Assembly: GCF_001457615.1 (NCBI RefSeq)
Contig: NZ_LN831024.1
Span: forward strand, 540,001-572,000
DNA: 32,000 bases
Reading direction: 5' to 3'
From: Pseudomonas aeruginosa
GTDB lineage: Bacteria > Pseudomonadota > Gammaproteobacteria > Pseudomonadales > Pseudomonadaceae
The notes below the pieces were generated by a model. It made no database searches. It was not told where the DNA came from and saw only the letters and a list, made by a program, of their open reading frames with translations. Positions within the stretch are counted from its first letter, which is position 1. Each line of letters begins with the position of its first letter. Positions 1-29,608 of this stretch are shown piece after piece. The position numbers were made by a program, and so were the translations under genes.

Positions 1-28
1 CTCCTTGCGGAAACGGCCGACGCGTGGA

Positions 29-322
29 TCAGTGGATGAGCCAGCTCATGACGATCAGGCCGAGCACCGTCCAGATCACCCCGCCGACTATCGAGCGGCG
101 CATGAAGGCGCGTATACCGCTGTAGAGCAGCAACAGGCCGAGCACCAGGAAGACGAAGCTGAACAGCGATGCGTCCATGCCGATGGCCCTGGCCAGGCCG
201 TGGAGGAAGTCGTCCATGGCGCCCCAGATGCCGCCCAGCAGGCCGGAGAGCAGGTCCACCACGAAGCGGATCGCCCTGCCCAGCATCTCGCCCAGTCCGT
301 CGAAAAAGCCTTCTGTACCCAT
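29..322 (-). CDS. small hydrophobic/membrane protein, function unknown (97 aa)
   Basis: ORF track 29..322. Codons are GC3-rich like the host. Hydrophobic stretches: LLSGLLGGIWGA, FSFVFLVLGLLLLY, VIWTVLGLIVMSWLI. Lies directly downstream of the LysR gene on the same strand. Confidence 0.55.
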   Translation of the reverse strand: MGTEGFFDGLGEMLGRAIRFVVDLLSGLLGGIWGAMDDFLHGLARAIGMDASLFSFVFLVLGLLLLYSGIRAFMRRSIVGGVIWTVLGLIVMSWLIH

Positions 323-375
323 GAGTGTCCTGTCCTGAGTGTTCCCAGCGTTGGATCAGAGATTAGCCGCCGGGT

Positions 376-1302
376 TCAGCGCCGGCTGCTGCTTTGCTGC
401 GGAGCGAGGAACGACTGGCGGAAGTATTCGCGGAACGCGCGCATCCCGGCGCTCGCTTCGGTGTCGCGGCGCCAGGCCAGGCCGACGCTCATCGACGGCA
501 CCGGGTCGAGCAGCGATAGCGTCTCGATGCGTTTGCCTTCCAGCGACCAGGGCCGGTACACCAGGTCGGAGAGGATGGCCACGCCGGAGCCGTTGGCGAC
601 CATGCTGCGCACCGCTTCCACCGAACTGGTATGGAGGATCACCTGTGGCCGGTGGCCGCTCTGTTGCCAGTAGCGCAGCGCGCTCTGCCCGGCCTCGTCG
701 ACGGTGAGCATGATGTAGGGCTCGCCGGCCACGTCGGCAAGGCCCAGGTCGGCCTTCTCGCCCAGCGGATGGCGGCTGGGCAGCCACAACCGGCGCTCGG
801 AGTTGAACAGGGTTTCGGCGGCGATCCCGGGCTCGGTGAGATTGCCGGTGAGCAGCACGGCGATGTCGTAGCGACCGTCGAGGAGGCCGCGCTCGATGCT
901 GGCGCGCTCGTCCTCGAACAGTTGCAGCTCCAGTTCCGGGTACCACTGCGCCAGGCGTTGCAGGTGGTGGGGGAGGAAATAGCCCATCACGGTATAGCTG
1001 GCGGCGACCTTCAGGGTGCCTTCGACCCGGGTGTCCGGTTGCGGGCTGTTGAGCGCGTCGTCGACGCTGCGCTGGATCGAATAGGCGTGGTTGAGGAAGT
1101 GCCGGCCGCTGTCGGTCAGGTTCATGCCCTGGGCCGTGCGGGTGAACAGGGCGACGCCGAGCATGCCCTCCAGTTCCTGGATCGCGCTGGTCACCGCCGA
1201 CTGCGAGATGTTCAGGTGGATGGCGGCCTGGGATATCTGGCCGAACTCGGCGGTGGCGATGAAGTAGCGAACCTGGCGGAGGGTCAGGGCCATGGGGAGC
1301 AT
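376..1302 (-). CDS. LysR-family transcriptional regulator
   Basis: 308 aa. The N-terminal wHTH (LTLRQVRYFIATAEFGQISQAAIHLNISQSAVTSAIQELE) is the classic LysR signature, followed by a C-terminal substrate-binding fold. Divergent from the 1420.. operon. Alternative start at ATG 1293 (MALTLRQ). Confidence 0.9.
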   Translation of the reverse strand: MLPMALTLRQVRYFIATAEFGQISQAAIHLNISQSAVTSAIQELEGMLGVALFTRTAQGMNLTDSGRHFLNHAYSIQRSVDDALNSPQPDTRVEGTLKVAASYTVMGYFLPHHLQRLAQWYPELELQLFEDERASIERGLLDGRYDIAVLLTGNLTEPGIAAETLFNSERRLWLPSRHPLGEKADLGLADVAGEPYIMLTVDEAGQSALRYWQQSGHRPQVILHTSSVEAVRSMVANGSGVAILSDLVYRPWSLEGKRIETLSLLDPVPSMSVGLAWRRDTEASAGMRAFREYFRQSFLAPQQSSSRR

Positions 1303-1419
1303 CCGGAGGAGGTATCTGTTTTTCAGAAACCAGTCTATCGAATAATAAATCTACCCAATACCTTTCCCGGCTTTTACCGTGGCTCCATCCAACAACAAGA
1401 CAGATGAGGCCTGCGGGCA

Positions 1420-2178
1420 ATGACTGAAGTCGACCTCAATTCCGACATGGGCGAAGGCTTCGGCCCATGGACCATCGGCGATGGCGTGGACGCGGCGATC
1501 ATGCCGCTGATCAGCAGCGCCAACATCGCCACCGGTTTCCATGCCGGCGACCCGAGCAGCATGCGCCGCACCGTGGAGATGGCCGCCGAGCATGGCGTGG
1601 CCATCGGCGCCCATCCGGGCTTCCGCGACCTGGTCGGCTTCGGGCGTCGGCACATCGCCGCGCCGGCCATCGAGCTGGTCAACGACATGCTCTACCAGCT
1701 TGGCGCACTGCGCGAATTCGCCCGGCTGCAGGGCCTGTCGCTGCAACACGTCAAGCCCCACGGCGCGCTCTACATGCACCTGGCGCGGGACGAGGTCGCC
1801 GCGCGCCTGTTCGTCGAGACCCTGCAACGCCTGGAACCGGAACTGCTGCTCTATTGCATGCCCGGTTCGGCCACCTGGCGCATCGGCCGGGAACTGGGCC
1901 AGCCGCTGGTGCGCGAGTTCTACGCCGACCGCGACTACGACCGCAGCGGCTCCATCGTCTTCACCCGGCGGGTCGCCGCCCTCGATCCGCAGCAGGTCGC
2001 CGACAAGGTCCTGCGCGCCTGCCGCGAGGGCAAGGTGCGCACCGTCGAGGGCGAGGACCTCGACATCGCCTTCGACTCGGTGTGCATCCACAGCGATACC
2101 CCCGGTGCCCTGGAGCTGGTCGCCAGCACCCGTGCGCGCCTGGAGGGCGCCGGCATCCGCATCAAGGCGCCGCGTTGA
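1420..2178 (+). CDS. LamB/YcsF (PxpA-like, 5-oxoprolinase subunit A family) protein
   Basis: 252 aa. N-terminus [34 protein letters not shown] is the LamB/YcsF family pattern. GAGG lies about 10 nt upstream of the ATG. Confidence 0.85.
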
Positions 2179-2254
2179 GCGCCGCTCGCCTCGGCGAGCC
2201 TCGCGACAAGCTTTTCTGCCATTTCCTACAACGTTCGAATAATGAGGATTCGTC

Positions 2255-2503
2255 ATGGCCGAACATAACGTGCAGTCCCCCTTGCCCGGCACCTTCTATC
2301 GCAAGGCCAGCCCCGACGCGCCGCCCTACGCGGAGGTCGGGCAGGCGGTCGAGGCCGGCAGCGTGATCGGGCTGATCGAGGTGATGAAGCAGTTTTCCGA
2401 AGTGCAGGCCGGGCAGGCCGGCATACTCCAGGCGTTCCACGTGGAAGATGGCGAGGCCATCGAGCCGGGCCAGGTGCTGGCGGTGATCGCCAGCGCTACC
2501 TGA
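2255..2503 (+). CDS. short biotin carboxyl carrier protein (biotinyl domain only)
   Basis: 82 aa with the biotinylation motif EVMKQ (Lys45, codon AAG 2387..2389). TGAGGA RBS upstream. Sits immediately before the biotin carboxylase gene. Confidence 0.85.
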   Translation: MAEHNVQSPLPGTFYRKASPDAPPYAEVGQAVEAGSVIGLIEVMKQFSEVQAGQAGILQAFHVEDGEAIEPGQVLAVIASAT

Positions 2504-2513
2504 GGAGGATGCC

Positions 2514-3890
2514 ATGCACAAGCGACTGAACAAGCTGCTGGTGGCCAATCGCGGCGAGATCGCCGTGCGCATCATCCGCGCCGCGCAGGCACTGGGCATT
2601 CCCACGGTAGCGGTGTGCAGCGAGGCGGATCGCGATTCGCTGGCCGCGCGGCTGGCCGATGAGGTACGCCTGATCGGCCCTGCGCGGGCCGACCGGAGCT
2701 ACCTGGATATCGAGGCGATTCTCATGGCGGCGCGGGAAACCGGTGCCGACTCGATCCATCCCGGCTACGGTTTCCTCTCCGAGAACCCCGCCTTCGCCGA
2801 AGCGGTGCAGGCGGCCGGCCTGGTCTTCGTCGGTCCGGAGGCGCAGACCATCCGCCGCATGGGCGACAAGGCCGAGGCGCGGCGTACCGCGATGGCCGCC
2901 GGGGTGCCGGTGGTGCCGGGCTCGCCCGGCGAACTGGGCGACCTCGACGCGGCGCTGGCCTGCGCCGAAGAGGTCGGCTATCCGCTGCTGGTCAAGGCCT
3001 CCGCCGGCGGCGGCGGGCGTGGCATCCGTATCGCCCACGACGCCGACGAACTGCGTCGGGAATTCCCCATCGCCCAGCGCGAGGCGCAGGCCGCCTTCGG
3101 TTCGCCGGCGGTGTACCTGGAGCGCTTCATCCGCCAGGCACGGCACATCGAAGTGCAAATCCTCGGCGATGGCGAGCGCGCGGTGCATCTGTTCGAACGC
3201 GAATGCTCGCTGCAGCGGCGGCGCCAGAAGGTCTTCGAGGAGGCACCTTCGGCGGCGCTGGACGGCGCGCAGCGCCAGGCCCTCTGCGAGAGCGCGGTGC
3301 GCCTGGCGCAGAGTCTCGGCTATCGTGGCGCGGGCACCCTGGAATACCTGTTCGACGCGCACAGCGGCGAGTTCTTCTTCATCGAGATGAACACCCGTAT
3401 CCAGGTCGAGCATCCGGTCAGCGAGATGGTCACCGGCATCGACCTGGTCCAGGCCATGCTGCGCATCGCCGCCGGCGAGGCGCTGCCCTGGCGCCAGGAG
3501 GACATTCGCCTGAACGGCGCGGCGCTGGAGATGCGGATCAACGCCGAAGACCCGGCGCGCAATTTCTTCCCCAGCCCCGGCACCGTGGAGCGCCTGGAAT
3601 GGCCGCAGGGCGAGGGCGTGCGAGTGGACAGCCACCTGTATCCCGGCTACCGGGTGCCGCCCTACTACGATTCGTTGCTGGCCAAGCTGATCGTCCATGG
3701 TCGCGACCGCGACGAAGCGTTCGCCCGCGCGCGCCAGGCGCTGGAGCGCACCGTGCTGGCCGGCATGGCCACTACCCTGCCGCTGTACCGCTGGCTGCTC
3801 GCCGATGCGCGGGTACAGGCCGCGCAGTTCGATACCGCTACCCTGGAAACCTGGCTCGCCGAGCGGACCGCCGCCGCGCAGGAGGTTTGA
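2514..3890 (+). CDS. biotin carboxylase (ATP-grasp) subunit
   Basis: 458 aa. KLLVANRGEIAVRIIRA N-terminus, glycine loop ASAGGGGRGIR, and EMNTRIQVEHPVSE motif. GAGGAGG RBS. Confidence 0.95.
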   Translation: MHKRLNKLLVANRGEIAVRIIRAAQALGIPTVAVCSEADRDSLAARLADEVRLIGPARADRSYLDIEAILMAARETGADSIHPGYGFLSENPAFAEAVQAAGLVFVGPEAQTIRRMGDKAEARRTAMAAGVPVVPGSPGELGDLDAALACAEEVGYPLLVKASAGGGGRGIRIAHDADELRREFPIAQREAQAAFGSPAVYLERFIRQARHIEVQILGDGERAVHLFERECSLQRRRQKVFEEAPSAALDGAQRQALCESAVRLAQSLGYRGAGTLEYLFDAHSGEFFFIEMNTRIQVEHPVSEMVTGIDLVQAMLRIAAGEALPWRQEDIRLNGAALEMRINAEDPARNFFPSPGTVERLEWPQGEGVRVDSHLYPGYRVPPYYDSLLAKLIVHGRDRDEAFARARQALERTVLAGMATTLPLYRWLLADARVQAAQFDTATLETWLAERTAAAQEV

Positions 3891-3891
3891 G

Positions 3892-4770
3892 ATGCATGCC
3901 AACATCCGCTACAGCTTCGGCGGCGACGAGCACCTGTTCGCCGAGGTCGCCGAGTCCATGTCGCTGGAAGCCTTCTTCCGCGGCATGGCGATCACCCGCG
4001 CCATCGAGACCCTGCAATTGCCCGGGGTGCTCGACGTATGCCTGGCCAACGCCTCGTTCCAGGTCCGCTTCGACCCCGACCGGCTGGCCCCGCAGGCGCT
4101 GCTGGAGACCGTACGCGGCCTGGAAGCCGAGGCGGTCGCCGCGCGCAGCATCGAGACGCGTATCGTCGAAGTGCCGGTGTTGTACAACGATCCCTGGACC
4201 CACGAGACCCTGATGCGCTTCCGCGACCGTCACCAGGACCCGGACTCCACCGACCTCGAGTACGCCGCGCGGATCAACGGCTACGCCGACGTGCAGGCGT
4301 TCATCCAGGCGCACAGCGGCACGCCGTGGTTCGTCTCGATGGTCGGTTTCGTCGCCGGCCTGCCGTTCATGTACCAGATGGTCGAGCGCGAGCGGCAGTT
4401 GCAGGTGCCCAAGTACCTGCGTCCGCGCATCGACACGCCGAAGCTGACCCTCGGCCACGGCGGTTGCTTCGGCTGCATCTATTCGGTGCGCGGTGCCGGC
4501 GGCTATCAGATGTTCGGCGTGACTCCGGCGCCGATCTTCGATCCCCGCCAGGGCCTGCCCTATCTCGAGGAATCGATGGTGTTCTTCCGCGCTGGCGACA
4601 TCGTCCAGTTCCGCCCCATCGAGCGGACCGAGTACGAGCGCATGGCGGCCGAAGTCGAAGCGGGCACATTCGACCTGCGCATCCGCCCGGTGAGTTTCGA
4701 TCTCGACGCGTTCCTCGCCGATCCGCGAGGCTGCACGCAACGTCTGCAGGAGGTGCTGTATGTCGATTAA
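3892..4770 (+). CDS. KipI/PxpB-like protein ('allophanate hydrolase subunit 1' family; carboxyltransferase-like)
   Basis: The track ORF 3697..4770 overlaps the biotin carboxylase 3' end, so I trimmed it to ATG 3892 (GGAGG at 3881, 1 nt after the BC stop). This gives 292 aa starting MHANIRYSFGGDEHLFAEV, typical of the KipI/PxpB family. Confidence 0.8.
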   Translation: MHANIRYSFGGDEHLFAEVAESMSLEAFFRGMAITRAIETLQLPGVLDVCLANASFQVRFDPDRLAPQALLETVRGLEAEAVAARSIETRIVEVPVLYNDPWTHETLMRFRDRHQDPDSTDLEYAARINGYADVQAFIQAHSGTPWFVSMVGFVAGLPFMYQMVERERQLQVPKYLRPRIDTPKLTLGHGGCFGCIYSVRGAGGYQMFGVTPAPIFDPRQGLPYLEESMVFFRAGDIVQFRPIERTEYERMAAEVEAGTFDLRIRPVSFDLDAFLADPRGCTQRLQEVLYVD

Positions 4771-5737
4771 GGTGCTCAAGCCCGGCCTCGCCACCTCGGT
4801 GCAGGACGCCGGCCGCGAAGGCCACTATCACCTGGGCATCCCGCCGTCCGGCGCGCTCGACCAGTATGCCCTGCGCGCGGCCAACCTGCTGGTGGGCAAC
4901 GCACCGACCGCCGCCGTGCTGGAGTGCGCGCTGCTGGGTCCGCAGCTGGAGTTCCAGCGCGACGCCCTGGTGGCCGTGTGCGGGGCGCGCATGACGCCTC
5001 GCCTGGAGGGCGCGGAGATGCCGCTGGATACTTCCTTCCGGGTTCGCGCCGGGCAGGTCCTGGGGTTCGACTTCATCCGTGCCGGCGCCCGTGGCTATCT
5101 CGCCATCGACGGCGGCATCGCGGTACCCGAGGTGCTGGGCAGCCGTTCGACCTACGGTCTGGGGGCGATCGGTGGCTTGCAGGGACGACGGCTGGCGGAG
5201 GGCGACCTGCTGCCCCTGGGGCCTGCCTCGCCCTCTGCCGTGGAGGGCTTGGCGCTGCCGCGTTCGCTGCAGGTGGAGGTCGGCGGCGAGGTGAGCTTGC
5301 GGGTGGTTCCCGGGCTCTACGTCCATCGCCTGACCCCCGACGCGGTCGAGCGTTTCTTCGCCGAGACCTGGACCGTCGGTTCGGAGGCGGACCGCACCGG
5401 CTACCGCTTCAAGGGCGGCACGGCGCTCCGGTTCGAGCCGCGCGAACAGCCATTCGGCGCAGGCTCGGACCCGTCCAACATCGTCGACGCCTGCTATCCC
5501 ATCGGCTCGATCCAGGTACCGGGCGGGCTCGAACCCATCGTCCTGCATCGTGATGCGGTGTCCGGTGGGGGATATGCCACGCTGGGCACGGTGATCAGCC
5601 CCGACCTGAACCGGCTGGCGCAGATGCAACCGAACCAGAAGGCGCGTTTCGTCGCCGTCAGCCTGGAGGAAGGTCTCGAGGCGCGTCGCCGTTACAACTG
5701 GCAAGTGCAACGACTCCAGCACTTCTTCCTGCGCTGA
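4760..5737 (+). CDS. KipA/PxpC-like protein ('allophanate hydrolase subunit 2' family; carboxyltransferase-like)
   Basis: 325 aa. MSIKVLKPGLATSVQDAGREGHYHLGIPPSGALD is the KipA/PxpC N-terminal signature. The start overlaps the upstream gene by 11 nt, suggesting translational coupling. Confidence 0.8.
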   Translation: MSIKVLKPGLATSVQDAGREGHYHLGIPPSGALDQYALRAANLLVGNAPTAAVLECALLGPQLEFQRDALVAVCGARMTPRLEGAEMPLDTSFRVRAGQVLGFDFIRAGARGYLAIDGGIAVPEVLGSRSTYGLGAIGGLQGRRLAEGDLLPLGPASPSAVEGLALPRSLQVEVGGEVSLRVVPGLYVHRLTPDAVERFFAETWTVGSEADRTGYRFKGGTALRFEPREQPFGAGSDPSNIVDACYPIGSIQVPGGLEPIVLHRDAVSGGGYATLGTVISPDLNRLAQMQPNQKARFVAVSLEEGLEARRRYNWQVQRLQHFFLR

Positions 5738-5746
5738 GTCGATACC

Positions 5747-5773
5747 GGGCCGCTTCGGTCTGCGAAGCGGCCC
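5747..5773. terminator. bidirectional hairpin between convergent genes
   Basis: Perfect 11-bp stem gggccgcttcg (5747..5757) / cgaagcggccc (5763..5773) with loop gtctg. It lies between the stop at 5737 (+) and the stop at 5781 (-). Confidence 0.6.
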
Positions 5774-5780
5774 CGGGCGG

Positions 5781-6782
5781 TCACTTGTAGTAGACCTCTA
5801 TCGCGGCGGTGGCGTTGAAGGGGCCTGGCGTTGGAGTGCCCGTCATCCACCTCACCTGGGCGAGGAAGTTTCTTATGACCACCAATTGGTTCTGGCTATT
5901 GGGCACCAGTACGAACTCCTTGCCGATATCGATGATGCTGCGGTCTTCCTGCTTGAGAAGTCGGATTCCCACGGACTTGTTGTTGTTATCCAAAAGAGTG
6001 TCCGAACCCCACAGGGAGGTGCTGCCGGAGGGGAGGAACATCGCGTTCAGGCCATAGGCGCTGCTGCAGTTCTTATTGGCGGTGACGCTGAACGGAAGTT
6101 CCTTGAGGATCTGGTCCCGGCTGGCGAAATAGGCCTGCAGGCTTTGGAAGTCGACGGTTTTTGGAGAAAGGCTGATTGTGGACGCGCAGGCGACGTAGCG
6201 AAGGTTATTCAAGCCGTGGAGGGTCATGCGGAAGTTGTACCCCCCTATGTTATTGATAGCGCTCTCGCCATCGAACTGGAAAATCGGGTAGGCGTTTACC
6301 CCTGTGATAGGACCTTCCTTACCGGTACTGGGACCTGCCCGCTTGGAGAGAAAGAAGTTGAAGTTGACGGTCATCTTCTTCGCCCTGCCTTCGCAACCTC
6401 GTCCCGTCCAGCAACCATCGAAGTGCATGCCGATCTCCTTTCGGCACTTGTCGAGTGTCGAGCAGCGCAGGTCTTCGCCGTTCAGGTTGATGCCCACCTC
6501 CAGGTCCGAACCCAGCGCGCCCTGACCGGTTGGACTCAGGTAGAAATAGACCTGCTCTGGCCCCCAGTCGCGATCCTGGAAGCAAGTGATCGATATGGAG
6601 TAGTTCGGAGACCGCCAGAGTACGGTGTCCTTGGGGAGGACCGATGGAACAGCGATGCTCGTATCGATGTAGACATAATCTTCGGTTTGCTTGTTGTCCG
6701 ATTTCCAGCACATCAAGGCGAAGCTTTTCTGCGACAGGACGAGCAGCATTGCGACAAGCATGTAACGGATGAAGGCATTCAT
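5781..6782 (-). CDS. fimbrial two-domain adhesin-like protein, paralog 1 (333 aa)
   Basis: Track ORF 5781..6929 trimmed to ATG 6782, where the signal peptide MNAFIRYMLVAMLLVLSQKSFA begins. The C-terminal half has the chaperone-usher pilin pattern: Cys pair YVACAST...NKNCSS, VGIRLL, and terminal GPFNATAAIEVYYK. The N-terminal ~150 aa is Cys-rich, resembling a lectin domain. Confidence 0.75.
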   Translation of the reverse strand: MNAFIRYMLVAMLLVLSQKSFALMCWKSDNKQTEDYVYIDTSIAVPSVLPKDTVLWRSPNYSISITCFQDRDWGPEQVYFYLSPTGQGALGSDLEVGINLNGEDLRCSTLDKCRKEIGMHFDGCWTGRGCEGRAKKMTVNFNFFLSKRAGPSTGKEGPITGVNAYPIFQFDGESAINNIGGYNFRMTLHGLNNLRYVACASTISLSPKTVDFQSLQAYFASRDQILKELPFSVTANKNCSSAYGLNAMFLPSGSTSLWGSDTLLDNNNKSVGIRLLKQEDRSIIDIGKEFVLVPNSQNQLVVIRNFLAQVRWMTGTPTPGPFNATAAIEVYYK

Positions 6783-6859
6783 GGGGTTCTTCTGCAGGTT
6801 GTTAATCGATTCTTGTTTTTGCAGAGCATGCCGCGCCTGTTGCAGGTGCGGCCTAGCGG

Positions 6860-7866
6860 TCACTTGTAATAGACCTCTATCGCGGCGGTGGCGTTGAACG
6901 GGCCTAGAATGGGTCTGCTCGTCATCCACCTCAGTTGGGCGAGAAAGTTCTTCGTCACCGTCGTCTGGGTTGGGGCGTAGGGAATGAACTCGAACTCCTT
7001 ACCGATACTGATGACGCTGCGATCCTCATTGAGGAGCCTGATGCCCACTGTTGGATTGTCCTTGGCCAGCAACGTATCCGTGCTCGACAGGGTGGTATTG
7101 CTGGCGGGAATGAACATAGCGTTCAGGCCATAGGCGCTGTTGCAGCTCTTATTGGCGGTGATGCTGAAGGGAAGTTCTTTGATGACCAGATTCTGTGCGG
7201 CAAATTGCGATTGCAGTATCTGGAAGTTGAGGGTTTTTGGAGAAATGCTTAGCGTGGAGGTGCAGGCGACGTAGCGGAGGTTGTTCATGCCAAGGGCATA
7301 CATACGTAGGTTCCGGCCCCCCAGGTTGTTGATGCCTCCCACTCCATCGAACTGGAACAGTGCGTAGGAGTTTACGCCCGTGATGGGACCTTCCTTGCCG
7401 GGAGTGGGGCGGCGAGTTTGGAGAGGAAGATCTGGAAACGGACCTGCTTGGTCTGAGCCATGCCTTCGCATCCCCCCCGTCCTCCTGTCCAGCAACCATC
7501 GAAATGCATGCCTATCTTCTGCCGGCAGCCGGGGAGCGAGGAACAACGGAGGTCCTCGCCGTTCAGGTTGATGCCCACCTCCAGGTCCGAGCCCAATGCG
7601 CCCTGGCCGTCCGGACTGAGATAGAAATAGACGTCCTCAGGTCCGGTGTTTTCGCGCTCCTGGTAACACCTGACGGAGAAATCGTAGGTTGGAGAGCGCC
7701 AGAGCACGGTGTCCTTGGGCAGAGCCGAAGGCACGGCGATGCTCGTGTCGATGTTGACATAGTCGATCGTTGCCTTGTTGTCCGCTCTTTCGCAGGTCAG
7801 CGCATAACCTTTCTGCGCCAACGCAACCAGCATTCCCACAAGTAGTGTTCGGGTAATTGCATTCAT
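6860..7866 (-). pseudogene. fimbrial adhesin-like protein, paralog 2, split by a -1 frame change
   Basis: The N-terminal fragment (ORF 7372..7866; signal peptide MNAITRTLLVGMLVALAQKGYA) aligns to paralog 1 up to ..FLSK. The C-terminal fragment (ORF 6860..7546) aligns from ..PTPGKEGPITGVN to GPFNATAAIEVYYK. The frames switch at a C4 run (plus-strand gggg 7406..7409). Confidence 0.7.
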
Positions 7867-7881
7867 GGTGTATTCCGGGCC

Positions 7882-8625
7882 TCATGGGTGTTTGGCGTTG
7901 GTCTCTACGCCTGATTTCAATGCGCCGTGATAAGGGTGGAGGTTCCCTCCGTCGCTGACGATCGCGTAACGCACTTTGTCGGGATGGCAGGCGGCGATGT
8001 CGAACTGGTGATTGGAGAAGGGCGCCAGCATCAGGTGTTCGATGGCTTCGCCGCAGCTCCGCTCCGATGCGTCGAGGAACTCCAACTGGCTGAAGGTGAT
8101 GTGGTAGGGCGAAGGATTGTGTGCCTTCGGATTGCCGCTGGTGCCGAGCGTCCACGTCACGCCCTCGTTCGCCTGCTCGACGGTGGCTTCCAGGGGCGGC
8201 CGATAGAACAGCTTGAAGCGATGGCGTAGGGCGATCTGCAGGGTCTCGGGAGTACTGGGCGCGTGCGGCACGTCCAGCACGCTCAACAGCAGGTAGGTCT
8301 CGCGGTCGGTGGGCAGGCCCTGGCCCTGGTAGAGCACCTCTACCTTGGCCCGCTGGCCGGCGCCCAGGCGGAGCAGCGGCCTGGACACGGCGAAGGGCAG
8401 CGCCTGCCCCTTGCCGTCGGTACCCCAATCCAGGGAGATTTCCGCCAGGGCCGGCTCCTTGCCCTCGTTGACCAGCGTGATCGGCAGGCGCTTGCCTTTC
8501 ATCACGAAACGGTTCTGGCCGTCGAACGAGAGATCGGCATGGGCGGACATGCACAGCCAGGCGAATATCGATGCAAGAACCATCCGAAGCCAACTTCGGA
8601 CCTGGAAGAGGCGCTTTCCATTCAT
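7882..8625 (-). CDS. PapD-like periplasmic pilus-assembly chaperone
   Basis: Track ORF 7882..8757 trimmed to ATG 8625, which gives the signal peptide MNGKRLFQVRSWLRMVLASIFAWLCMSAHA. The mature N-terminus NRFVMKGKRLPITLVNEGKEPALAEISLDW matches the chaperone 'RVIY..g.k...l.v.N.g..p.l.q.w' pattern. About 248 aa. Stop is 15 nt before the paralog 2 start. Confidence 0.8.
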   Translation of the reverse strand: MNGKRLFQVRSWLRMVLASIFAWLCMSAHADLSFDGQNRFVMKGKRLPITLVNEGKEPALAEISLDWGTDGKGQALPFAVSRPLLRLGAGQRAKVEVLYQGQGLPTDRETYLLLSVLDVPHAPSTPETLQIALRHRFKLFYRPPLEATVEQANEGVTWTLGTSGNPKAHNPSPYHITFSQLEFLDASERSCGEAIEHLMLAPFSNHQFDIAACHPDKVRYAIVSDGGNLHPYHGALKSGVETNAKHP

Positions 8626-8857
8626 ATTCCTGAATGTGCCCGAATGAAACCCGTATCGTGTTTTGGAAAGTGGTTGGTCGGAAGGGTCGAATATATTTTT
8701 CGTTATACTTCCGCTGCGCTTTGAATGGCTATATTTAGGGTGGTTGGTTGCGTTCATGGTTCAAGTCTGGATAACTTGTTTTCGTTGCGCACCGCTAGGG
8801 TGGCAAGAGATTCAATGTTTCTCCATGTTAGAAACCTGCTAGGGAATATATAAATAA

Positions 8858-8886
8858 GATATTTCCTATTTCTTGTAGGAAATATC
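8858..8886. promoter_or_regulatory. 11-bp perfect inverted repeat in AT-rich intergenic region (candidate operator)
   Basis: gatatttccta (8858..8868) / taggaaatatc (8876..8886) with a 7-nt spacer tttcttg. Located upstream of the chaperone operon on the minus strand. Confidence 0.3.
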
Positions 8887-9001
8887 CTAAGCATTACTTG
8901 TAGTTTTCCGAGGTAGTTGCGCCGTTTCTTCCAGGGAGCCGAATGCCACATAGAGGACGAGGCCGATTGGAGCAGTCGATGACTACTGGCTTCTACATGA
9001 G

Positions 9002-9018
9002 TGATCAAATATTGATCA
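9002..9018. promoter_or_regulatory. 17-bp palindrome TGATCAA-ATA-TTGATCA (unassigned binding site)
   Basis: Perfect 7-bp arms (9002..9008 / 9012..9018). Sits 27 bp upstream of the putative bioB -35 element. Confidence 0.3.
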
Positions 9019-9019
9019 G

Positions 9020-9051
9020 ATGTAGTCCTGTGTCCTGGGTTGGGTTGACAG
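9020..9051 (+). promoter_or_regulatory. candidate BirA operator (bioO-like)
   Basis: aTGTAgtCC (9020..9028)-N14-GGTTgACAg (9043..9051). As I recall, the enterobacterial bioO is TTGTAAACC-N14/15-GGTTTACAA. The right half overlaps the -35 element. Confidence 0.35.
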
Positions 9052-9072
9052 CGTCATACAGCCACTTATGAT
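9045..9072 (+). promoter_or_regulatory. sigma-70 promoter of the bio operon
   Basis: TTGACA (9045..9050), 16-nt spacer, TATGAT (9067..9072). About 77 nt upstream of the bioB ATG. Confidence 0.5.
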
Positions 9073-9148
9073 GCCCTTGAGCCTGACCCCCGGCGTGCCG
9101 GGGCTCCCCGACAAAAGGCGCCATACAAGCGTCGAAGGAATCTTCCCC

Positions 9149-10207
9149 ATGAGTGCAACCGCTTCCGTCGCCACCCGTCACGACTGGTCCCTCGCCGAAG
9201 TCCGTGCCCTGTTCGAGCAACCGTTCAACGACCTGCTGTTCCAGGCGCAGACGGTGCATCGCGCGCACTTCGACCCGAACCGCGTGCAGGTCTCGACGCT
9301 GCTGTCGATCAAGACCGGCGCCTGCCCCGAGGACTGCAAGTACTGCCCGCAGTCCGGCCACTACAACACCGGCCTGGACAAGGAGAAGCTGTTGGAGGTG
9401 CAGAAGGTCCTCGAGGCGGCGGCCGAGGCCAAGGCCATCGGTTCGACCCGCTTCTGCATGGGCGCTGCCTGGAAGCACCCGTCGGCCAAGGACATGCCCT
9501 ACGTCCTGGAGATGGTCAAGGGCGTGAAGAAGCTCGGCCTGGAGACCTGCATGACCCTCGGCCGCCTGACCCAGGAACAGACCCAGGCGCTGGCGGACGC
9601 CGGCCTCGACTACTACAACCACAACCTGGATACCTCGCCGGAGTTCTACGGCAACATCATCACCACCCGCACCTACAGCGAGCGCCTGCAGACCCTGGCC
9701 TACGTGCGCGAGGCGGGGATGAAGATCTGCTCCGGCGGCATCCTCGGCATGGGCGAGTCGGTGGACGACCGCGCCGGCCTGCTGATCCAACTGGCGAACC
9801 TGCCGGAGCACCCGGAGTCGGTGCCGATCAACATGCTGGTGAAGGTCAAGGGCACGCCCCTGGCGGAAGAGAGGGACGTCGATCCCTTCGACTTCATCCG
9901 CACCCTGGCGGTGGCCCGGATCATGATGCCGAAGTCCCACGTGCGCCTGTCCGCCGGCCGCGAGCAGATGAACGAGCAGATGCAGGCGCTGGCCTTCATG
10001 GCCGGGGCCAACTCGATCTTCTACGGCGAAAAGCTGCTGACCACGAAGAACCCGCAGGCCGAAAAGGACATGCAGTTGTTCGCCCGTCTCGGCATCAAGC
10101 CGGAAGAGCGCGAAGAGCACGCCGACGAAGTGCACCAGGCCGCCATCGAGCAGGCGTTGGTGGAACAACGCGAATCGAAGCTGTTCTATAACGCCGCTTC
10201 CGCCTGA
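9149..10207 (+). CDS. bioB: biotin synthase
   Basis: 352 aa from ATG 9149, with GAAGGAA RBS at 9134..9140. Radical-SAM CxxxCxxC motif ([11 protein letters not shown]). The longer track start at 9068 was rejected. Confidence 0.97.
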
Positions 10208-14296: not shown

Positions 14297-14418
14297 AGAG
14301 TCGGGACGCATGAGTGCGTCCGGCAAGGCGACCGGGAGCGATCCCGCACTGCGACCGCAGACTCTGGACATCCGTCCGGTCGCCGATTAACCAGAACCCT
14401 TCGTAGAGGTTGACTGCT

Positions 14419-16224
14419 ATGCCTGATTACAAGGCCCCCTTGCGTGATATCCGTTTCGTTCGCGACGAGCTGCTGGGCTACGAAGCGCACTACCAGAGCC
14501 TGCCGGGCGCCGAAGACGCGACTCCCGACATGGTCAACGCCATCCTCGAGGAAGGTGCGAAGTTCTGCGAACAGGTGATCGCTCCGCTGAACCGCGTCGG
14601 CGACCTGGAAGGCTGCACCTGGAGCGCCGACGGCGTGAAGACCCCGACCGGCTTCAAGGAGGCCTACCAGCAGTTCGTCGAAGGCGGCTGGCCGAGCCTG
14701 GCCCATGACGTCGAGCACGGCGGCCAGGGTCTGCCGGAATCCCTCGGCCTGGCCATCAGCGAGATGGTCGGCCAGGCCAACTGGTCCTGGGGCATGTACC
14801 CGGGCCTGTCCCACGGCGCCATGAACACCCTGCATGCCCACGGCACCGCCGAGCAGCAGGCAACCTACCTGACCAAGCTGGTCTCCGGCGAGTGGACCGG
14901 CACCATGTGCCTGACCGAGCCGCACTGCGGCACCGACCTGGGCATGCTGCGCACCAAGGCCGAGCCGCAGGCCGACGGTAGCTACAAGGTCACCGGCACC
15001 AAGATCTTCATCTCCGCCGGCGAGCACGACATGGCCGACAACATCGTCCATATCGTCCTGGCCCGCCTGCCCGACGCCCCGCAGGGCACCAAGGGCATCT
15101 CGCTGTTCATCGTGCCGAAGTTCCTGCCCAACGCCGAAGGCAACGCCGGCGAGCGCAACGCGGTTTCCTGCGGTTCCATCGAGCACAAGATGGGCATCCA
15201 CGGCAACGCCACCTGCGTGATGAACTTCGACGCCGCCACCGGCTTCCTGATCGGCCCGCCGAACAAGGGCCTGAACTGCATGTTCACCTTCATGAACACC
15301 GCTCGCCTGGGTACCGCGCTGCAAGGCCTGGCCCATGCCGAAGTCGGTTTCCAGGGCGGCATCGCCTATGCTCGCGAGCGTCTGCAGATGCGCTCGCTGA
15401 CCGGTCCGAAGGCGCCCGAGAAGCCCGCCGACCCGATCATCGTGCATCCTGACGTGCGCCGCATGCTGCTGACCATGAAGGCCTTCGCCGAAGGCAACCG
15501 CGCGATGCTGTACTTCGCCGCCAAGCAGGTCGACATCGTCCAGCGCAGCCAGGACGAAGAGCAGAAGAAAGCCGCCGACTCGATGCTGGCCTTCCTCACG
15601 CCGATCGCCAAGGCGTTCATGACCGAAGTCGGCTTCGAGTCCGCCAACCACGGCGTGCAGATCTTCGGCGGCCACGGTTTCATCGCCGAGCACGGCATGG
15701 AGCAGAACGTCCGCGACAGCCGCATCTCGATGCTGTACGAAGGCACTACCGGCGTTCAGGCCCTCGACCTGCTGGGTCGCAAGGTGCTGATGACCCAGGG
15801 CGAGGCGCTGAAGGGCTTCACCAAGATCGTGCACAAGTTCTGCCAGGCCAACGAAGCCAACGAAGCCGTCAAGGAATTCGTCGCTCCGCTGGCACAGCTG
15901 AACAAGGAGTGGGGCGACCTGACCATGAAGGTCGGCATGGCCGCCATGAAGGATCGCGAGGAAGTCGGCGCCGCTTCGGTGGACTACCTGATGTACTCCG
16001 GCTACGCCTGCCTGGCCTACTTCTGGGCCGACATGGCGCGCCTGGCCGCCGAGAAGCTGGCCGCCGGCACCGGCGAGGAAGCCTTCTACAAGGCCAAGCT
16101 GCAGACCGCGCGCTTCTACTTCCAGCGCATCCTGCCGCGTACCCGCGCCCACGTCGCCGCCATGCTGTCCGGCGCCAACAACCTGATGGAGATGGCCGAG
16201 GAAGATTTCGCCCTCGGTTACTGA
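14419..16224 (+). CDS. fadE1: long-form acyl-CoA dehydrogenase (601 aa)
   Basis: Start set to ATG 14419 ([10 protein letters not shown]) by analogy with the two paralogs; track TTG 14410 rejected. Motifs [12 protein letters not shown] and [12 protein letters not shown] (catalytic Glu). The symbol comes from remembering PA0506 at this position. Confidence 0.9.
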
Positions 16225-16228
16225 TGGC

Positions 16229-16288
16229 ACGGGCCGCTGGCGGCCCGTTCCCCAGGTGAGAAAGAGCCCGCCCTTCGGCGGGCTTTTT
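16229..16288 (+). terminator. tandem hairpins; the second is a canonical rho-independent terminator
   Basis: First hairpin: acgggccg-ctgg-cggcccgt (16229..16248). Second: gcccgcc-cttc-ggcgggc followed by ttttt (16266..16288). Confidence 0.75.
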
Positions 16289-16436
16289 CATGCCTGCGAT
16301 CCGCTGCATCCTGGCCTTCCGACCTCGGGGTTATGGCGTTGCATTCAGCGTCCGCAGCGTGATTGTAGGCGCCCGCCCGGCGCAGTAGCTTCGAGGGATT
16401 CGCGCCTGTGGGGCGCCCCTGCCGAGGAGAACAGAG

Positions 16437-18233
<1,797 letters not shown>

Positions 18234-18320
18234 CGGCTGCCGGGGCAGGGGCGCGGCGCTTCTTCCCCCGGTTTCTCCCGCACCCGCCGGGCCCGTCGGA
18301 CTCCCGGCGAACTCGCTCCA

Positions 18321-18343
18321 GCCCGCGAAAAGCGGGCTTTCTC
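18321..18343 (+). terminator. rho-independent terminator
   Basis: gcccgc-gaaaa-gcgggc followed by tttctc. The same GGGCTTT(T/C)TCATGCCTG flank occurs after the first paralog. Confidence 0.6.
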
Positions 18344-18505
18344 ATGCCTGTCGCATAGAAGACCGATATAGACTTTACGGTCACGACGTGACGCTACAAG
18401 TCCGAAATGTTGGTGGTGTAGACTCGGCCGCGGCACGCCTTTCGTGCCTCCATTTTGTTGCCGCTGGCCCCCGGCCGGCGATCGGTACGATCGAGGATTC
18501 CCCAC

Positions 18506-20284
18506 ATGGCTGATTACAAAGCTCCGCTGCGCGACATGCGCTTCGTCCTCAATGAGGTGTTCGAGGTCTCCCGGCTCTGGGCGCAACTGCCGGCGCTGGC
18601 CGAAGTGGTCGACGCCGAGACCGCCGCGGCGATCCTCGAAGAGGCCGGCAAGGTCACCGCCGGTACCATCGCCCCGCTGAACCGTCCGGGCGACGAGGAA
18701 GGCTGCCAGTGGAACGCTGGCGCGGTGAGCACCCCGGCCGGCTTCCCCGAGGCCTACCGGACCTACGCCGAAGGCGGCTGGGTCGGCGTCGGCGGTGATC
18801 CGGCCTACGGCGGCATGGGTATGCCCAAGGTGATCTCGGCGCAGGTCGAGGAACTGGTCAACTCGGCCAACCTGTCGTTCGGCCTGTATCCGATGCTGAC
18901 CGCCGGCGCCTGCCTGGCGCTCAATGCCCATGCCAGCGACGAACTGAAGGACAAGTACCTGCCGAACATGTACGCCGGTATCTGGGCCGGTTCCATGTGC
19001 CTGACCGAGCCGCATGCCGGCACCGACCTGGGCATCATCCGCACCAGGGCCGAGCCGCAGGCCGACGGCTCCTACAAGATCAGCGGGACCAAGATCTTCA
19101 TCACCGGCGGCGAGCATGACCTGACCGAGAACATCATCCACCTGGTGCTGGCCAAGCTGCCCGACGCCCCGGCCGGGCCGAAGGGCATCTCGCTGTTCCT
19201 GGTACCGAAGGTGCTGGTCAACGCCGACGGTTCGCTGGGCGAGAAGAACAGCCTGGGTTGCGGCTCCATCGAGCACAAGATGGGGATCAAGGCCTCGGCC
19301 ACCTGCGTGATGAACTTCGACGGCGCTACCGGTTGGCTGGTGGGCGAGGTCAACAAGGGCCTGGCGGCGATGTTCACCATGATGAACTACGAGCGCCTTG
19401 GCGTCGGCATCCAGGGCCTGGCCACCGGCGAGCGCTCCTACCAGAGCGCCATCGAATATGCCCGCGAGCGTATCCAGAGCCGCGCGCCGACCGGCCCGGT
19501 GGCCAAGGACAAGGCCGCCGACCCGATCATCGTGCACCCCGACGTGCGTCGCATGCTGCTCACCATGAAGGCGCTGAACGAAGGCGGCCGCGCCTTCTCC
19601 AGCTACGTCGCGATGCAGCTGGACACCGCCAAGTACAGCGAAGACGCGGTCACCCGCAAGCGCGCGGAAGAGCTGGTGGCGCTGCTGACCCCGGTGGCCA
19701 AGGCATTCCTCACCGACATGGGGCTGGAAACCACCATCCATGGCCAGCAGATCTTCGGTGGCCACGGCTTCATCCGCGAATGGGGCCAGGAGCAACTGGT
19801 GCGCGACTGTCGCATCACGCAGATCTACGAAGGCACCAATGGCATCCAGGCGCTCGACCTGGTGGGGCGCAAGGTGATCGGCAGCGGCGGCGCCTTCTCC
19901 CGTCACTTCACCGACGAGATCAAGGCCTTCGTCGCTTCCGCCGACGAGGCCCTGGGCGAGTTCAGCAAGCCGCTGGCGGCCGCCGTGGAGAACCTGGAAG
20001 AGCTGACCGCCTGGCTGCTCGACCGCGCCAAGGGCAATCCCAACGAGATCGGCGCGGCGTCGGTCGAATACCTGCATGTGTTCGGCTACACCGCCTATGC
20101 CTACATGTGGGCATTGATGGCGCGCACCGCGCTGGCCAAGCAGGGCGAGGACGACTTCTACGCCAGCAAGCTGGGTACCGCGCGCTTCTACTTCGCCCGC
20201 CTGCTGCCGCGCATCCATTCCCTGAGCGCCTCCGTGCGCGCCGGCAGCGAGTCGCTGTACCTGCTGGACGCCGAGCAGTTCTGA
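18506..20284 (+). CDS. fadE2: long-form acyl-CoA dehydrogenase paralog (592 aa)
   Basis: Track ORF trimmed to ATG 18506 ([13 protein letters not shown]). Contains CLTEPHAGTDLG and IYEGTNGIQALDL. The symbol comes from remembering PA0508 at this position. Confidence 0.9.
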   Translation: MADYKAPLRDMRFVLNEVFEVSRLWAQLPALAEVVDAETAAAILEEAGKVTAGTIAPLNRPGDEEGCQWNAGAVSTPAGFPEAYRTYAEGGWVGVGGDPAYGGMGMPKVISAQVEELVNSANLSFGLYPMLTAGACLALNAHASDELKDKYLPNMYAGIWAGSMCLTEPHAGTDLGIIRTRAEPQADGSYKISGTKIFITGGEHDLTENIIHLVLAKLPDAPAGPKGISLFLVPKVLVNADGSLGEKNSLGCGSIEHKMGIKASATCVMNFDGATGWLVGEVNKGLAAMFTMMNYERLGVGIQGLATGERSYQSAIEYARERIQSRAPTGPVAKDKAADPIIVHPDVRRMLLTMKALNEGGRAFSSYVAMQLDTAKYSEDAVTRKRAEELVALLTPVAKAFLTDMGLETTIHGQQIFGGHGFIREWGQEQLVRDCRITQIYEGTNGIQALDLVGRKVIGSGGAFSRHFTDEIKAFVASADEALGEFSKPLAAAVENLEELTAWLLDRAKGNPNEIGAASVEYLHVFGYTAYAYMWALMARTALAKQGEDDFYASKLGTARFYFARLLPRIHSLSASVRAGSESLYLLDAEQF

Positions 20285-20367: not shown

Positions 20368-20562
20368 GGATATCCGCTTGCGGCTATCCGCCATTCCCAG
20401 GGTTTTCTCGGGGCCGTGATGGGACAGGGTGATCGGCGGATAACGCCGTTGGCGTTATGCCCTACGGCTCCTCGCGCAGGGTGGGCGGTAGGGCGAATAA
20501 CCGCTTGCGGTTATCCGCCATTCCCGTGGTTTTTCTCGTGCCGTGAGGGGACAGGGTTGTCG
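20368..20562. repeat. REP-like intergenic repeat cluster (two ~67-bp direct copies plus three palindromic GGATAAC..GTTATCC units)
   Basis: Copy A (20369..20435) and copy B (20495..20562) are near-identical: (g)ATAaCCGCTTGCGGtTATCCGCCATTCCC..GGTTTTCTCG..GCCGTGA.GGGACAGGGT..TCG. Palindromic units lie at 20368..20389, 20438..20460 (followed by CCTACG) and 20495..20516. Confidence 0.8.
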
Positions 20563-20615
20563 CGGTCCGCCGCGGAGGATACGGGGATATCCGTTGATGG
20601 CGTCTCGCCCGAGCC

Positions 20616-22097: not shown

Positions 22098-22927
22098 GCG
22101 ACGGCCTCGCGGCTGACCGGCGAGCCGGCGCCCAGGTATGACGGATGCGCCATCGCGCGCTCGGCGAAGAGCGCGACCACCTGGCCGACGACGATCAGCG
22201 TCGGCGGCTTCAACTGGTAGCGTCGCGCCAGCGCCGGCAGCTCGGCAAGGGCGCCGCGGGTCACCTGCTGGCCCGCCTGGGTGCCCTGGCTGACCAGCGC
22301 CGCCGGGGTGTCGCTGGCGAGGCCGTGCTCGACCAGGCGCGCGGCGATCTCGGCGAGGTTGCCCAGGCCCATGTAGAACACCAGGGTCTGCTTGCCACGC
22401 GCCAGGCCGGCCCAGTCGAGGTCGAGGCGGCCGTCGTTCTGCAGGTGGCCGGTGACGAAGGTGCAGGACTGGGCGAGGTCGCGGTGGGTCAGCGGGATGC
22501 CGGCGTAGGTACTGCAACCGGAGGCGGCGGTGACGCCGGGGACCACCTGGCAGTCGACGCCGGCTTCGAGCAGGCGCTCCAGCTCCTCGGCGCCGCGACC
22601 GAAGATGAACGGGTCGCCGCCTTTCAGGCGGACCACCCGGCGTTGCTGCCGGGCCAGGCGCACCAGCAGCTCGTTGATTTCTTCCTGCGGCAGGCTGTGG
22701 TGGCCGCAGCGCTTGCCGACGTAGATGCGCTGGCAGCTTTCCGGCAGAAGGGCGATCAGCTCGCGGGCGACCAGGCGGTCGTAGACCACCACCTCGGCCT
22801 GTTGCAGCAGGGCCCAGGCGCGCAGGGTGAGCAGGCCCGGATCGCCGGGGCCGGCGCCGACCAGGGCGACGCTGCCGGCAGGGAAATCGACATCGAGGAG
22901 GGACGGCGGAATCACGGTAGTGTTCAT
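22088..22927 (-). CDS. nirE: uroporphyrinogen-III C-methyltransferase (SUMT) for heme d1
   Basis: Trimmed to ATG 22927 ([11 protein letters not shown]), giving 279 aa. SUMT motif [15 protein letters not shown]. Overlaps the nirN start by 10 nt. Confidence 0.9.
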
Positions 22928-22937
22928 GAGGCTTTCC

Positions 22938-25994: not shown

Positions 25995-26002
25995 GGTGCC
26001 TC

Positions 26003-27848: not shown

Positions 27849-27869
27849 CACGGTTCCTCGTAGGGGGGA

Positions 27870-27893: not shown

Positions 27894-27898
27894 GGGTC

Positions 27899-29608
<1,710 letters not shown>

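Follow-up and report, generated by a model that had tools for sequence, protein, structure and literature searches.

The stretch of Pseudomonas aeruginosa DNA considered here (hereafter the window, 32 kb in all, to which every coordinate refers) contains a five-gene operon and, divergent from it, the gene of a LysR-type regulator (Table 1). The operon encodes, in this order, a hydrolase of the PxpA/LamB-YcsF family, a biotin carboxyl carrier protein (BCCP) consisting of the biotinoyl domain only, a biotin carboxylase (BC), and two proteins, designated PxpB-like and PxpC-like, that represent the two halves of a carboxyltransferase (CT). The three components of a biotin-dependent carboxylase (BC, a carrier with its biotinyl lysine, and CT) are all encoded together at this locus. 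The five operon genes are intact, and the six genes with their junctions are as given in the preliminary description of this DNA, with gaps of 76, 10 and 1 nucleotides (nt), an overlap of 11 nt, and a small hairpin inside the 76-nt gap that follows the first gene; the Shine-Dalgarno sequences of the PxpB-like and PxpC-like genes are located within the respective preceding genes. Identical proteins are found on at least 1000 P. aeruginosa contigs and the PxpA sequence is exactly that of UniProt PXPA1_PSEAE, which identifies the window as the PA0491-PA0496 region. The absence of an allophanate hydrolase, already noticed in the preliminary description, extends to the whole 32 kb, where zero amidase-signature genes are found.

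Table 1. Genes and sequence elements of the PA0491-PA0496 region, in window coordinates
Feature	Position	Strand	Remarks
LysR-type regulator (PA0491-like)	376..1302	-	divergent from operon; Pfam HTH_1 + LysR_substrate
Conserved operator, LysR-pxpA intergenic region	1313..1358		alignment of 18 intergenic regions
PxpA/LamB-YcsF family hydrolase	1420..2178	+	Pfam LamB_YcsF, 305 bits
Leader between pxpA and BCCP gene	2179..2254	+	contains hairpin 2184-2199
Biotinoyl-domain-only BCCP, 82 aa	2255..2503	+	Pfam Biotin_lipoyl; EVMKQ motif
parS-like palindrome CGTTCCACGTGGAAGA within BCCP gene	2433..2448		two mismatches to parS consensus
Biotin carboxylase (BC), ATP-grasp	2514..3890	+	Pfam Biotin_carb_N, CPSase_L_D2, Biotin_carb_C
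PxpB-like CT subunit, CT subdomains C and D, 292 aa	3892..4770	+	Pfam CT_C_D
PxpC-like CT subunit, CT subdomains A and B, 325 aa	4760..5737	+	Pfam CT_A_B, 299 bits
GC-rich inverted repeat CCGGGCCGCTTCG ... CGAAGCGGCCCCGG, 3' of last gene	5746..5776		read from sequence

BC and BCCP look functional, judging from their sequences. BC exceeds the cut-off of NCBIfam NF009471 (866 bits against 686) and shares 52% identity with E. coli AccC; every catalytic residue compared is conserved (K116, K159, H209, E211, K238, E276, E288, N290, R292, Q294, E296 and R338). BCCP likewise exceeds the cut-off of NF005457 (134.5 bits against 87) and has its biotinyl lysine (K45, codon 2387-2389) in the EVMKQ motif, EVMK with this lysine being present in all 45 BCCP-bearing sequences examined. 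The ratio of non-synonymous to synonymous substitutions (dN/dS), estimated in Pseudomonas lineages retaining both genes, is 0.09 for BC and 0.10 for BCCP. The alignment of BCCP to E. coli AccB covers residues 78-156 (the biotinoyl domain) only, the N-terminal domain of AccB being missing, and an AccA/AccD carboxyltransferase partner is not present at the locus. PxpA scores 302 bits against the subfamily-level model NF003814 (cut-off 226) and does not reach any of the three equivalog-level models NF003813, NF003815 and NF003812. It is 38% identical to E. coli PxpA, and its relatives with solved structures are PH0986, TTHB195, YbgL and PA4511, the last of which is another PxpA paralogue in P. 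aeruginosa.

By their sequence features, the PxpB-like and PxpC-like proteins are a CT of the urea carboxylase (UC) type, and not an ordinary PxpB/PxpC pair. PxpB-like scores 93.9 bits against the UC model TIGR02712 and 69.7 bits against the PxpB model TIGR00370, whose cut-off (145.55) it fails; PxpC-like scores 230.7 bits against urea_carbox and 218.8 bits against the PxpC equivalog NF045499, again failing the cut-off (500). The cut-off of TIGR02712 itself (EC 6.3.4.6; 1303.85 bits) is not attained by four separate genes, the pieces scoring 28-532 bits. Among solved structures, the UC of Kluyveromyces lactis is the only homologue that aligns to PxpB-like over its full length (residues 4-276), whereas KipI, YbgJ and MSMEG_0436 align to its middle part only. 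Four features are common to the PxpB-like family and UC: an insertion (NDPWTHETLMRFRDRHQDP), the motif GGYQ, an extension of the C-terminus by about 45 residues, and the lysine of a PKY motif. This lysine (Lys174 in PxpB-like, codon 4411-4413), invariant in 27 family members, falls in the alignment column of K1605 of K. lactis UC, which is the essential general base of carboxyltransfer (PMC5770610) and the UC catalytic residue used for this comparison. In contrast, canonical PxpB, KipI and MSMEG_0436 have an arginine at this column, and lack both the insertion and the extension. Similarly, PxpC-like has an insertion (FGAGSDPSNIVDACYPIGS, around residues 232-250, nt 5453-5509) with the motif PSN..D..Y, that aligns with EAGLHPSNAHDYVYSLGA of K. 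lactis UC; neither E. coli PxpC nor 88 of the 121 aligned sequences have it. A fold search with an AlphaFold model of PxpB-like, used for global fold ranking only, also places UC first (5I8I and 3VA7, template modelling (TM) score 0.71-0.72), the canonical PxpB-type chains YbgJ and MSMEG_0436 reaching 0.41-0.45.

How widely is this gene set conserved? A census (one genome per species, a six-sequence alignment as query, and the window's six proteins as tblastn queries) gave 80 loci in Gamma- and Betaproteobacteria, for relatives of at least 60% identity. The order divergent LysR / PxpA-BCCP-BC-PxpB-like-PxpC-like occurs in about 42 of them, and the same five-gene operon is found on a Corynebacteriaceae contig at 43-56% identity, one of the seven single contigs from which the picture of distant relatives is drawn; such a recurring gene arrangement is far beyond chance. 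In about 33 other loci, belonging to the P. fluorescens, P. syringae and P. putida groups, the genes for LysR, PxpA, PxpB-like and PxpC-like are present without BC/BCCP. In several of these loci an in-frame fusion (MAE-PLATTPIRY) joins the BCCP start codon and the first 2-3 codons to the PxpB-like gene, others carry a 5' BCCP stub with the 3' end of the BC gene, or larger pseudogene remnants, and one locus of Vibrio sp. MEBiC08052 (L065, around 8770-9140) represents an intermediate state in which BCCP is kept and BC alone is lost. The BC-less state is thus a loss and not the ancestral condition, as indicated by the in-frame fusions, the stubs and pseudogene remnants, and the retention of the leader that otherwise precedes the BCCP gene, and the differences among these scars indicate several independent deletions. 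In BC-less loci the remaining trio is as constrained as before (dN/dS of 0.08, 0.05 and 0.10, within a range of 0.05-0.11) and the catalytic lysine is retained. Dedicated BC/BCCP genes, lost repeatedly while the remaining genes stayed under purifying selection, are therefore useful where present but replaceable, most simply, it would seem, by the housekeeping AccB/AccC.

The lysine-bearing CT clade extends to other phyla, where its partners may differ. On the other distant contigs the partner of the CT genes is either LamB or a HyuAB-type gene set belonging to the hydantoinase / oxoprolinase / caprolactamase family. Lysine-bearing CT_C_D/CT_A_B genes lie beside HyuA/HyuB-type genes in a Bacillaceae contig (L094), an unassigned contig (L096) and a Firmicute contig (L097), the latter reading aminotransferase-BCCP-HyuA-HyuB-CT_C_D-CT_A_B-BC with an aminotransferase of the class III / omega type. 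Judging from gene content, these HyuAB-linked loci may represent a further type of biotin-linked system, acting on lactams or hydantoins. The CT thus accompanies two unrelated kinds of lactam- or hydantoin-opening enzymes, which fits a role in activating cyclic amides; for caprolactamase, which needs bicarbonate, a carboxylated lactim has come under discussion. The amidase family is not listed on the seven distant contigs with called genes, the census of the 80 loci having carried no amidase query.

A candidate substrate comes from P. putida. In P. putida genomes the corresponding cluster reads LysR-LamB-CT_C_D-CT_A_B, followed by genes for DUF4130, radical SAM, Mqo and UDP-glucose dehydrogenase proteins; as PP_2926 is udg (PMC7937890) and the synteny is shared, the cluster corresponds to PP_2919-PP_2922 of strain KT2440, with PP_2920-22 as the trio. 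Its proteins are 71-81% identical to those of the window, and its operator is the same. The case for orthology to the KT2440 genes, drawn from synteny in other P. putida genomes and a count of locus tags, is strong but indirect. Transposon mutants in PP_2919-22 have fitness values of -3.8 to -5.1 on butyrolactam, but do not show such values on valerolactam, caprolactam, hydantoin or gamma-aminobutyric acid (GABA); a clean deletion abolishes growth on butyrolactam, which is restored by a plasmid carrying PP_2920-22 alone (Schmidt et al., bioRxiv 10.1101/2021.12.09.472016). In the same study (bioRxiv 10.1101/2021.12.09.472016), cross-complementation among the three P. putida lactamases is substrate-specific, the promoter of the cluster responds to 50 uM butyrolactam, and the use of 5-oxoproline depends on the paralogue PP_4575-7 and not on PP_2920-22. 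Since PP_2919-22 are both needed for butyrolactam use and induced by butyrolactam, a candidate substrate exists, and the earlier statement that the system has no known substrate is out of date.

Several observations hint at a role of biotin. The closeness of the operon to bioBFHCD, one islet away as the preliminary description had it (they start at 9068, past a 3-kb fimbrial islet of 56% GC), is more than coincidence: the BC-containing form has biotin-synthesis genes as neighbours in three different arrangements (loci L003, L062, L068, L071, L073, L075, L078, L079 and L080). The bioBFHCD genes lie immediately downstream in P. citronellolis, and likewise in P. aeruginosa but beyond the inserted islet; bioF-D-B lies immediately upstream of the LysR gene in Burkholderia; and bioB is found 1.6-2.5 kb downstream in Glaciimonas, Trinickia and a betaproteobacterial metagenome-assembled genome. 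Biotin-synthesis genes stand beside none of the roughly 33 BC-less loci. In the cryo-electron microscopy structure of the long-chain acyl-CoA carboxylase complex of M. smegmatis, biotin attached to the BCCP of the housekeeping AccA3 is held by MSMEG_0435-0436, homologues of PxpC/PxpB (PMC13012033), which shows directly that pairs of this kind bind to BCCP, even to a housekeeping one. In the P. putida fitness data (Schmidt et al. data set), a bioB mutant has its worst value among 47 stored columns on butyrolactam (-3.4/-3.2, compared with -0.7/-0.8 on the product GABA). In C. glutamicum, pxpA (cg1141) and the transporter gene cg1142 (pxpT) give two of the few biotin-responsive mRNAs, cg1142 being up 2.1-fold on biotin limitation, and cg1141 and cg1142 down to 0.4-0.5 on biotin excess (PMC3398298); this response could be an indirect effect of glutamate overflow and is not counted here as support.

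Taken together, these data suggest a model in which PA0492-PA0496 would form a multi-subunit, biotin-dependent and ATP-driven lactam hydrolase (a 'lactam amidolyase'), with the conversion of butyrolactam (2-pyrrolidinone) into GABA as its likeliest reaction, and to this model we give about an even chance of being right. BC would carboxylate the biotin carried by the 82-aa BCCP from ATP and bicarbonate, and the CT formed by PxpB-like and PxpC-like would hand the carboxyl group on to the nitrogen in the lactam ring, Lys174 of PxpB-like serving as the base. PxpA/LamB would then hydrolyse the activated N-carboxy-lactam, comparable to allophanate in urea breakdown, and the carbamate product would release CO2. 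The net reaction would be lactam + ATP + H2O -> omega-amino acid + ADP + Pi, and the divergent LysR protein would turn the operon on in the presence of the lactam. In lineages without dedicated BC/BCCP, the CT would draw carboxybiotin from the housekeeping AccB/AccC. The data show the gene set and its conservation, the UC-type features, the intact catalytic residues, selection acting on all of the genes, and the orthology to the butyrolactam genes of P. putida; biotin dependence, N-carboxylation and the substrate in P. aeruginosa are what we infer here. The preliminary description had recognised a split biotin-dependent carboxylase with a LamB/PxpA partner, explained neither by the urea amidolyase nor by the classical 5-oxoprolinase reaction; both points are supported, the first with the precision that the CT is of the UC type. 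Its guess of a lactam carboxylation followed by ring opening is also what the present data favour, the mechanism itself being a matter of deduction.

A bolder extension of this model, which we find doubtful but worth stating, is that all of the PxpABC / KipI-KipA family, with the widespread bacterial 5-oxoprolinase among its members, owes its need for ATP to a biotin carboxylase. PxpB and PxpC would then be CTs borrowing carboxybiotin from a BCCP, dedicated if one is encoded, otherwise housekeeping (AccB/AccA3), and PxpA would hydrolyse the N-carboxylated lactam across the family. If true, this would account for the fact that no ATP site has been found in PxpABC, for the seating of MSMEG_0435-0436 on the mycobacterial acyl-CoA carboxylase BCCP, and for the recurrent loss of BC/BCCP from the operon.

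What weighs against a biotin-dependent lactam hydrolase? The butyrolactam evidence comes from an orthologue without BC/BCCP, at 71-81% identity, and not from P. aeruginosa, and the family appears here through genes and genetics, not biochemistry. Several deletions have removed BC/BCCP and left the other genes in place. The fitness data for bio genes in P. putida are ambiguous, since the pattern beyond bioB is weaker: mutants in bioF, bioH, bioC and bioD suffer less on butyrolactam (-0.8 to -1.3) than with ammonium (-1.3 to -1.9). The AlphaFold model of PxpB-like is of moderate confidence (mean predicted local distance difference test score of 68) and poor across residues 151-230, and PxpB-like has the PxpB-type motif GF.AGLPF where UC carries LGDVFLGSP. 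Outside the shared insertions and deletions (indels), PxpC-like is about equidistant from UC and E. coli PxpC (36-41% identity). In the phylogeny of PxpC-like, quartets group it with UC at a moderate support of just 62-69%, and strict monophyly of the insertion-bearing PxpC-like proteins with UC was recovered in 0 of 200 neighbour-joining bootstraps, because of rogue sequences. The link to UC is therefore placed on the shared indels and the lysine, and not on the tree.

Does the repeated loss of BC/BCCP mean that the trio works without biotin? It may, and the main rival to a biotin-dependent hydrolase is that PxpA, PxpB-like and PxpC-like alone form an ATP-dependent, biotin-independent lactamase, in the way assumed for PxpABC, BC/BCCP being accessory (for example as booster, regulator or in CO2 handling). 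The BC-less operons with their trio under selection, and the rescue of the P. putida mutant by the trio genes alone, speak for this explanation, and the literature assumes phosphorylation of the lactam by PxpBC. We nevertheless think it unlikely. The trio has no recognisable ATP-binding domain, Pfam giving LamB_YcsF, CT_C_D and CT_A_B only; the CT lysine and the UC-type elements persist in BC-less lineages; and in every lineage that has them, BC/BCCP evolve under strong purifying selection. Every host used for complementation had a housekeeping AccB/AccC, and the mycobacterial homologues hold a BCCP-bound biotin in their active site.

An ordinary 5-oxoprolinase (PxpABC) adjoining a spare BC/BCCP pair by chance is what the database names imply (PXPA1_PSEAE, '5-oxoprolinase subunit B/C family protein' in NCBI/UniProt), and PxpA indeed passes the cut-off of NF003814. 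This explanation is nonetheless very improbable: the PxpB-like and PxpC-like proteins fail the cut-offs of the corresponding models (scores given above), the P. putida orthologue has no role on 5-oxoproline, for which PP_4575-7 are needed and cross-complementation fails, P. aeruginosa possesses another PxpA paralogue, PA4511, and the BC/BCCP genes, besides their translational coupling to the Pxp-like genes, are conserved along with these across phyla. The preliminary description would have counted as refuted by BC/BCCP being dispensable to a trio acting as an ordinary 5-oxoprolinase; nature provides this in part, as the BC-less operons with their constrained trio show dedicated BC/BCCP not to be obligatory, without making the trio an ordinary 5-oxoprolinase.

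A split urea or guanidine carboxylase with its matching hydrolase encoded elsewhere would account for the UC-type catalytic lysine, insertions and fold, and for the label 'urea carboxylase' that some homologues carry in the Joint Genome Institute (JGI) annotation. The chances of this explanation are slim, as there is no allophanate hydrolase or amidase gene in the window, no guanidine riboswitch or other Rfam element, and no carboxyguanidine deiminase gene as partner; the partner that never changes is LamB/PxpA, another sequence stands in place of the UC motif LGDVFLGSP, and butyrolactam is the only compound on which the P. putida orthologue shows a visible phenotype. Least probable of all is that BC/BCCP make up half of a second acetyl-CoA carboxylase, with no functional relation to the Pxp-like genes (as the titles 'acetyl-CoA carboxylase' of NF005457 and NF009471 suggest, but with the AccA/AccD partner and the AccB N-terminal domain missing, and with BC/BCCP always lying between pxpA and the PxpB-like gene and being deleted together), or that the Pxp-like pair is a BCCP-sequestering regulator, like the mycobacterial complex that sequesters biotin without UC activity (PMC13012033), against which the P. 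putida trio shows a clear catabolic phenotype.

The LysR protein matches zero NCBIfam equivalogs at cut-off; being 71% identical to the P. putida regulator that adjoins LamB, it is, on sequence grounds, the orthologue of PP_2919, the butyrolactam-responsive activator, whose mutant has a fitness of -4.6/-3.8 on butyrolactam (bioRxiv 10.1101/2021.12.09.472016). The putative LysR operator consists of two dyads, TATCTGTTTTTCAGAAA (1313-1329) and TATCGAATAATAAATCTA (1336-1353), followed by CCCAA. This block, to which the regulator would presumably bind, is kept in 18 aligned intergenic regions from Pseudomonas, Marinomonas, Vibrio, Burkholderia, Achromobacter and enterobacteria, regardless of whether BC/BCCP are present in the locus.

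The leader between pxpA and the BCCP gene may control translation. Its hairpin (GCTCGCC-TCGG-CGAGC) recurs at the same site, just 3' of the pxpA stop codon, in other Pseudomonas, with some compensatory changes; taken alone, the hairpin of the window is not more stable than shuffled sequence (z = -0.66). A function as terminator was rejected for the window, where the hairpin lacks both significance by itself and a T run behind it. Further along, base pairing of GCCATTTCCT (2218-2227) could involve the Shine-Dalgarno sequence GAGGA (2244-2248) as well as the start codon of the BCCP gene. Other Pseudomonas have the leader as GCCTGCCTTTCTACAAC...AGGAACAGACATGGC, and retain it even where BC/BCCP have been lost, in which case it precedes the PxpB-like gene. 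Within it, the stretch GCCUGCCUUUCU is invariant across Pseudomonas (loci L004, L017, L024, L029, L054 and L082), and because this sequence never varies the stem pairing with the Shine-Dalgarno sequence is unproven. An Rfam search of positions 1-9200 at E <= 1 gave no match except one chance small RNA, and no guanidine riboswitch.

The palindrome within the BCCP gene has two mismatches to the parS consensus, with 0.05 chance matches expected. As parS6 adjoins PA0492-PA0496, and ParB overproduction reduces the expression of these genes (PMC5521831), it is probably parS6, and separate from the enzyme function. At the other end of the operon, the GC-rich inverted repeat is likely to mark its end, as a two-way stop between convergent genes (the operon and a fimbrial gene); the repeat was missed by a consensus terminator scan because it is without a T run after it.

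Between the operon and bioB lies the islet mentioned above (5781-8757, minus strand), of 56% GC against 66-70% in its surroundings. It contains a PapD-type chaperone gene (7882-8757) and two tandem paralogous fimbrial-adhesin-like genes, 64-66% identical across their aligned halves, the upstream copy being frameshifted into open reading frames 7372-7866 and 6860-7546; an usher gene is absent from the islet. P. citronellolis (L003) is without the islet, and its bioB begins 203 nt past the PxpC-like gene. Further genes of the window, unrelated to the operon, include three tandem paralogous long acyl-CoA dehydrogenases of about 600 aa with an Acyl-CoA_dh_C domain (14410-20284, plus strand), and the heme d1 / nitrite reductase (nir) genes (20455-31936, minus strand).

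The genes discussed here are thus known, widely and misleadingly annotated, and represented by one orthologue with a genetic phenotype, their enzymology being undescribed in the literature searched, where no paper mechanistically links these BC/BCCP genes with the Pxp-like genes. For example, Schmidt et al. (bioRxiv 10.1101/2021.12.09.472016) treat PP_2920-22 as a PxpABC paralogue and do not consider biotin, work on S. aureus CcpE files the genes of the corresponding operon separately under amino-acid and fatty-acid metabolism (PMC11315280), and an L. pentosus genome paper reports an extra 'ACC' (acetyl-CoA carboxylase) copy and pxpB/pxpC-like genes as unrelated items. If true, the model proposed here would add a new type of biotin-dependent reaction, in which the N-carboxylation of a lactam drives its hydrolysis, and explain the ATP coupling of Pxp-type lactamases. 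It would also correct the labels 'acetyl-CoA carboxylase', 'allophanate hydrolase subunit 1/2' and '5-oxoprolinase' in thousands of genomes, including those of P. aeruginosa, Burkholderia and S. aureus, and provide a testable function for the KipA/KipI homologues that bind the mycobacterial acyl-CoA carboxylase. Butyrolactam and related lactams being nylon precursors, their breakdown by production hosts, and their sensors, are relevant to metabolic engineering.

Among the closest known systems, P. putida KT2440 PP_2919-PP_2922 is orthologous and has the same gene order, operator, catalytic lysine and UC-type insertions, with a PxpB-like protein of 295 aa and a PxpC-like protein of 323 aa, and with regulator, PxpA and both CT subunits all within the range of identity given above. 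It differs by the absence of BC/BCCP, of which the former BCCP start, fused to the PxpB-like gene, is the deletion scar. The S. aureus six-gene operon with pxpB, pxpC, accB, accC and pxpA (PMC11315280), compared by description only, has the same five functions and a LysR-type regulator; its order is B, C, BCCP, BC, A, and the regulator is the citrate-responsive CcpE.

The PxpABC systems (E. coli YbgJKL, B. subtilis KipI/KipA/YcsF) belong to the same three families, with the same A-B-C logic and a five-membered lactam as substrate. However, canonical PxpB has about 220 aa, an arginine in place of the catalytic lysine, and neither the insertion nor the C-terminal extension of the longer PxpB-like protein of the window; canonical PxpC is without the PSN insertion, the E. 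coli pxp operon is without BC/BCCP, and identity to the window proteins is 30-41%. M. smegmatis MSMEG_0435-0436 (9YX5; PMC13012033) resembles the window pair as a PxpC/PxpB-type heterodimer that takes the BCCP biotin into its pocket; it is of the canonical type, with an arginine at the lysine column, no UC insertion and no dedicated BC/BCCP, and a regulatory role has been proposed for it. Finally, the K. lactis UC / urea amidolyase (3VA7, 5I8I) combines BC, BCCP and a CT of four subdomains, and has the K1605 lysine, the shared insertions and the best fold match, at an overall identity of 36-41% and with its LGDVFLGSP motif not conserved in the window system. The chemistry proposed here would also be alike, an amide being N-carboxylated and then hydrolysed, but UC is one polypeptide where the window system has four, and its hydrolase partner is the amidase-signature allophanate hydrolase, a place taken in P. 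aeruginosa by LamB/PxpA.

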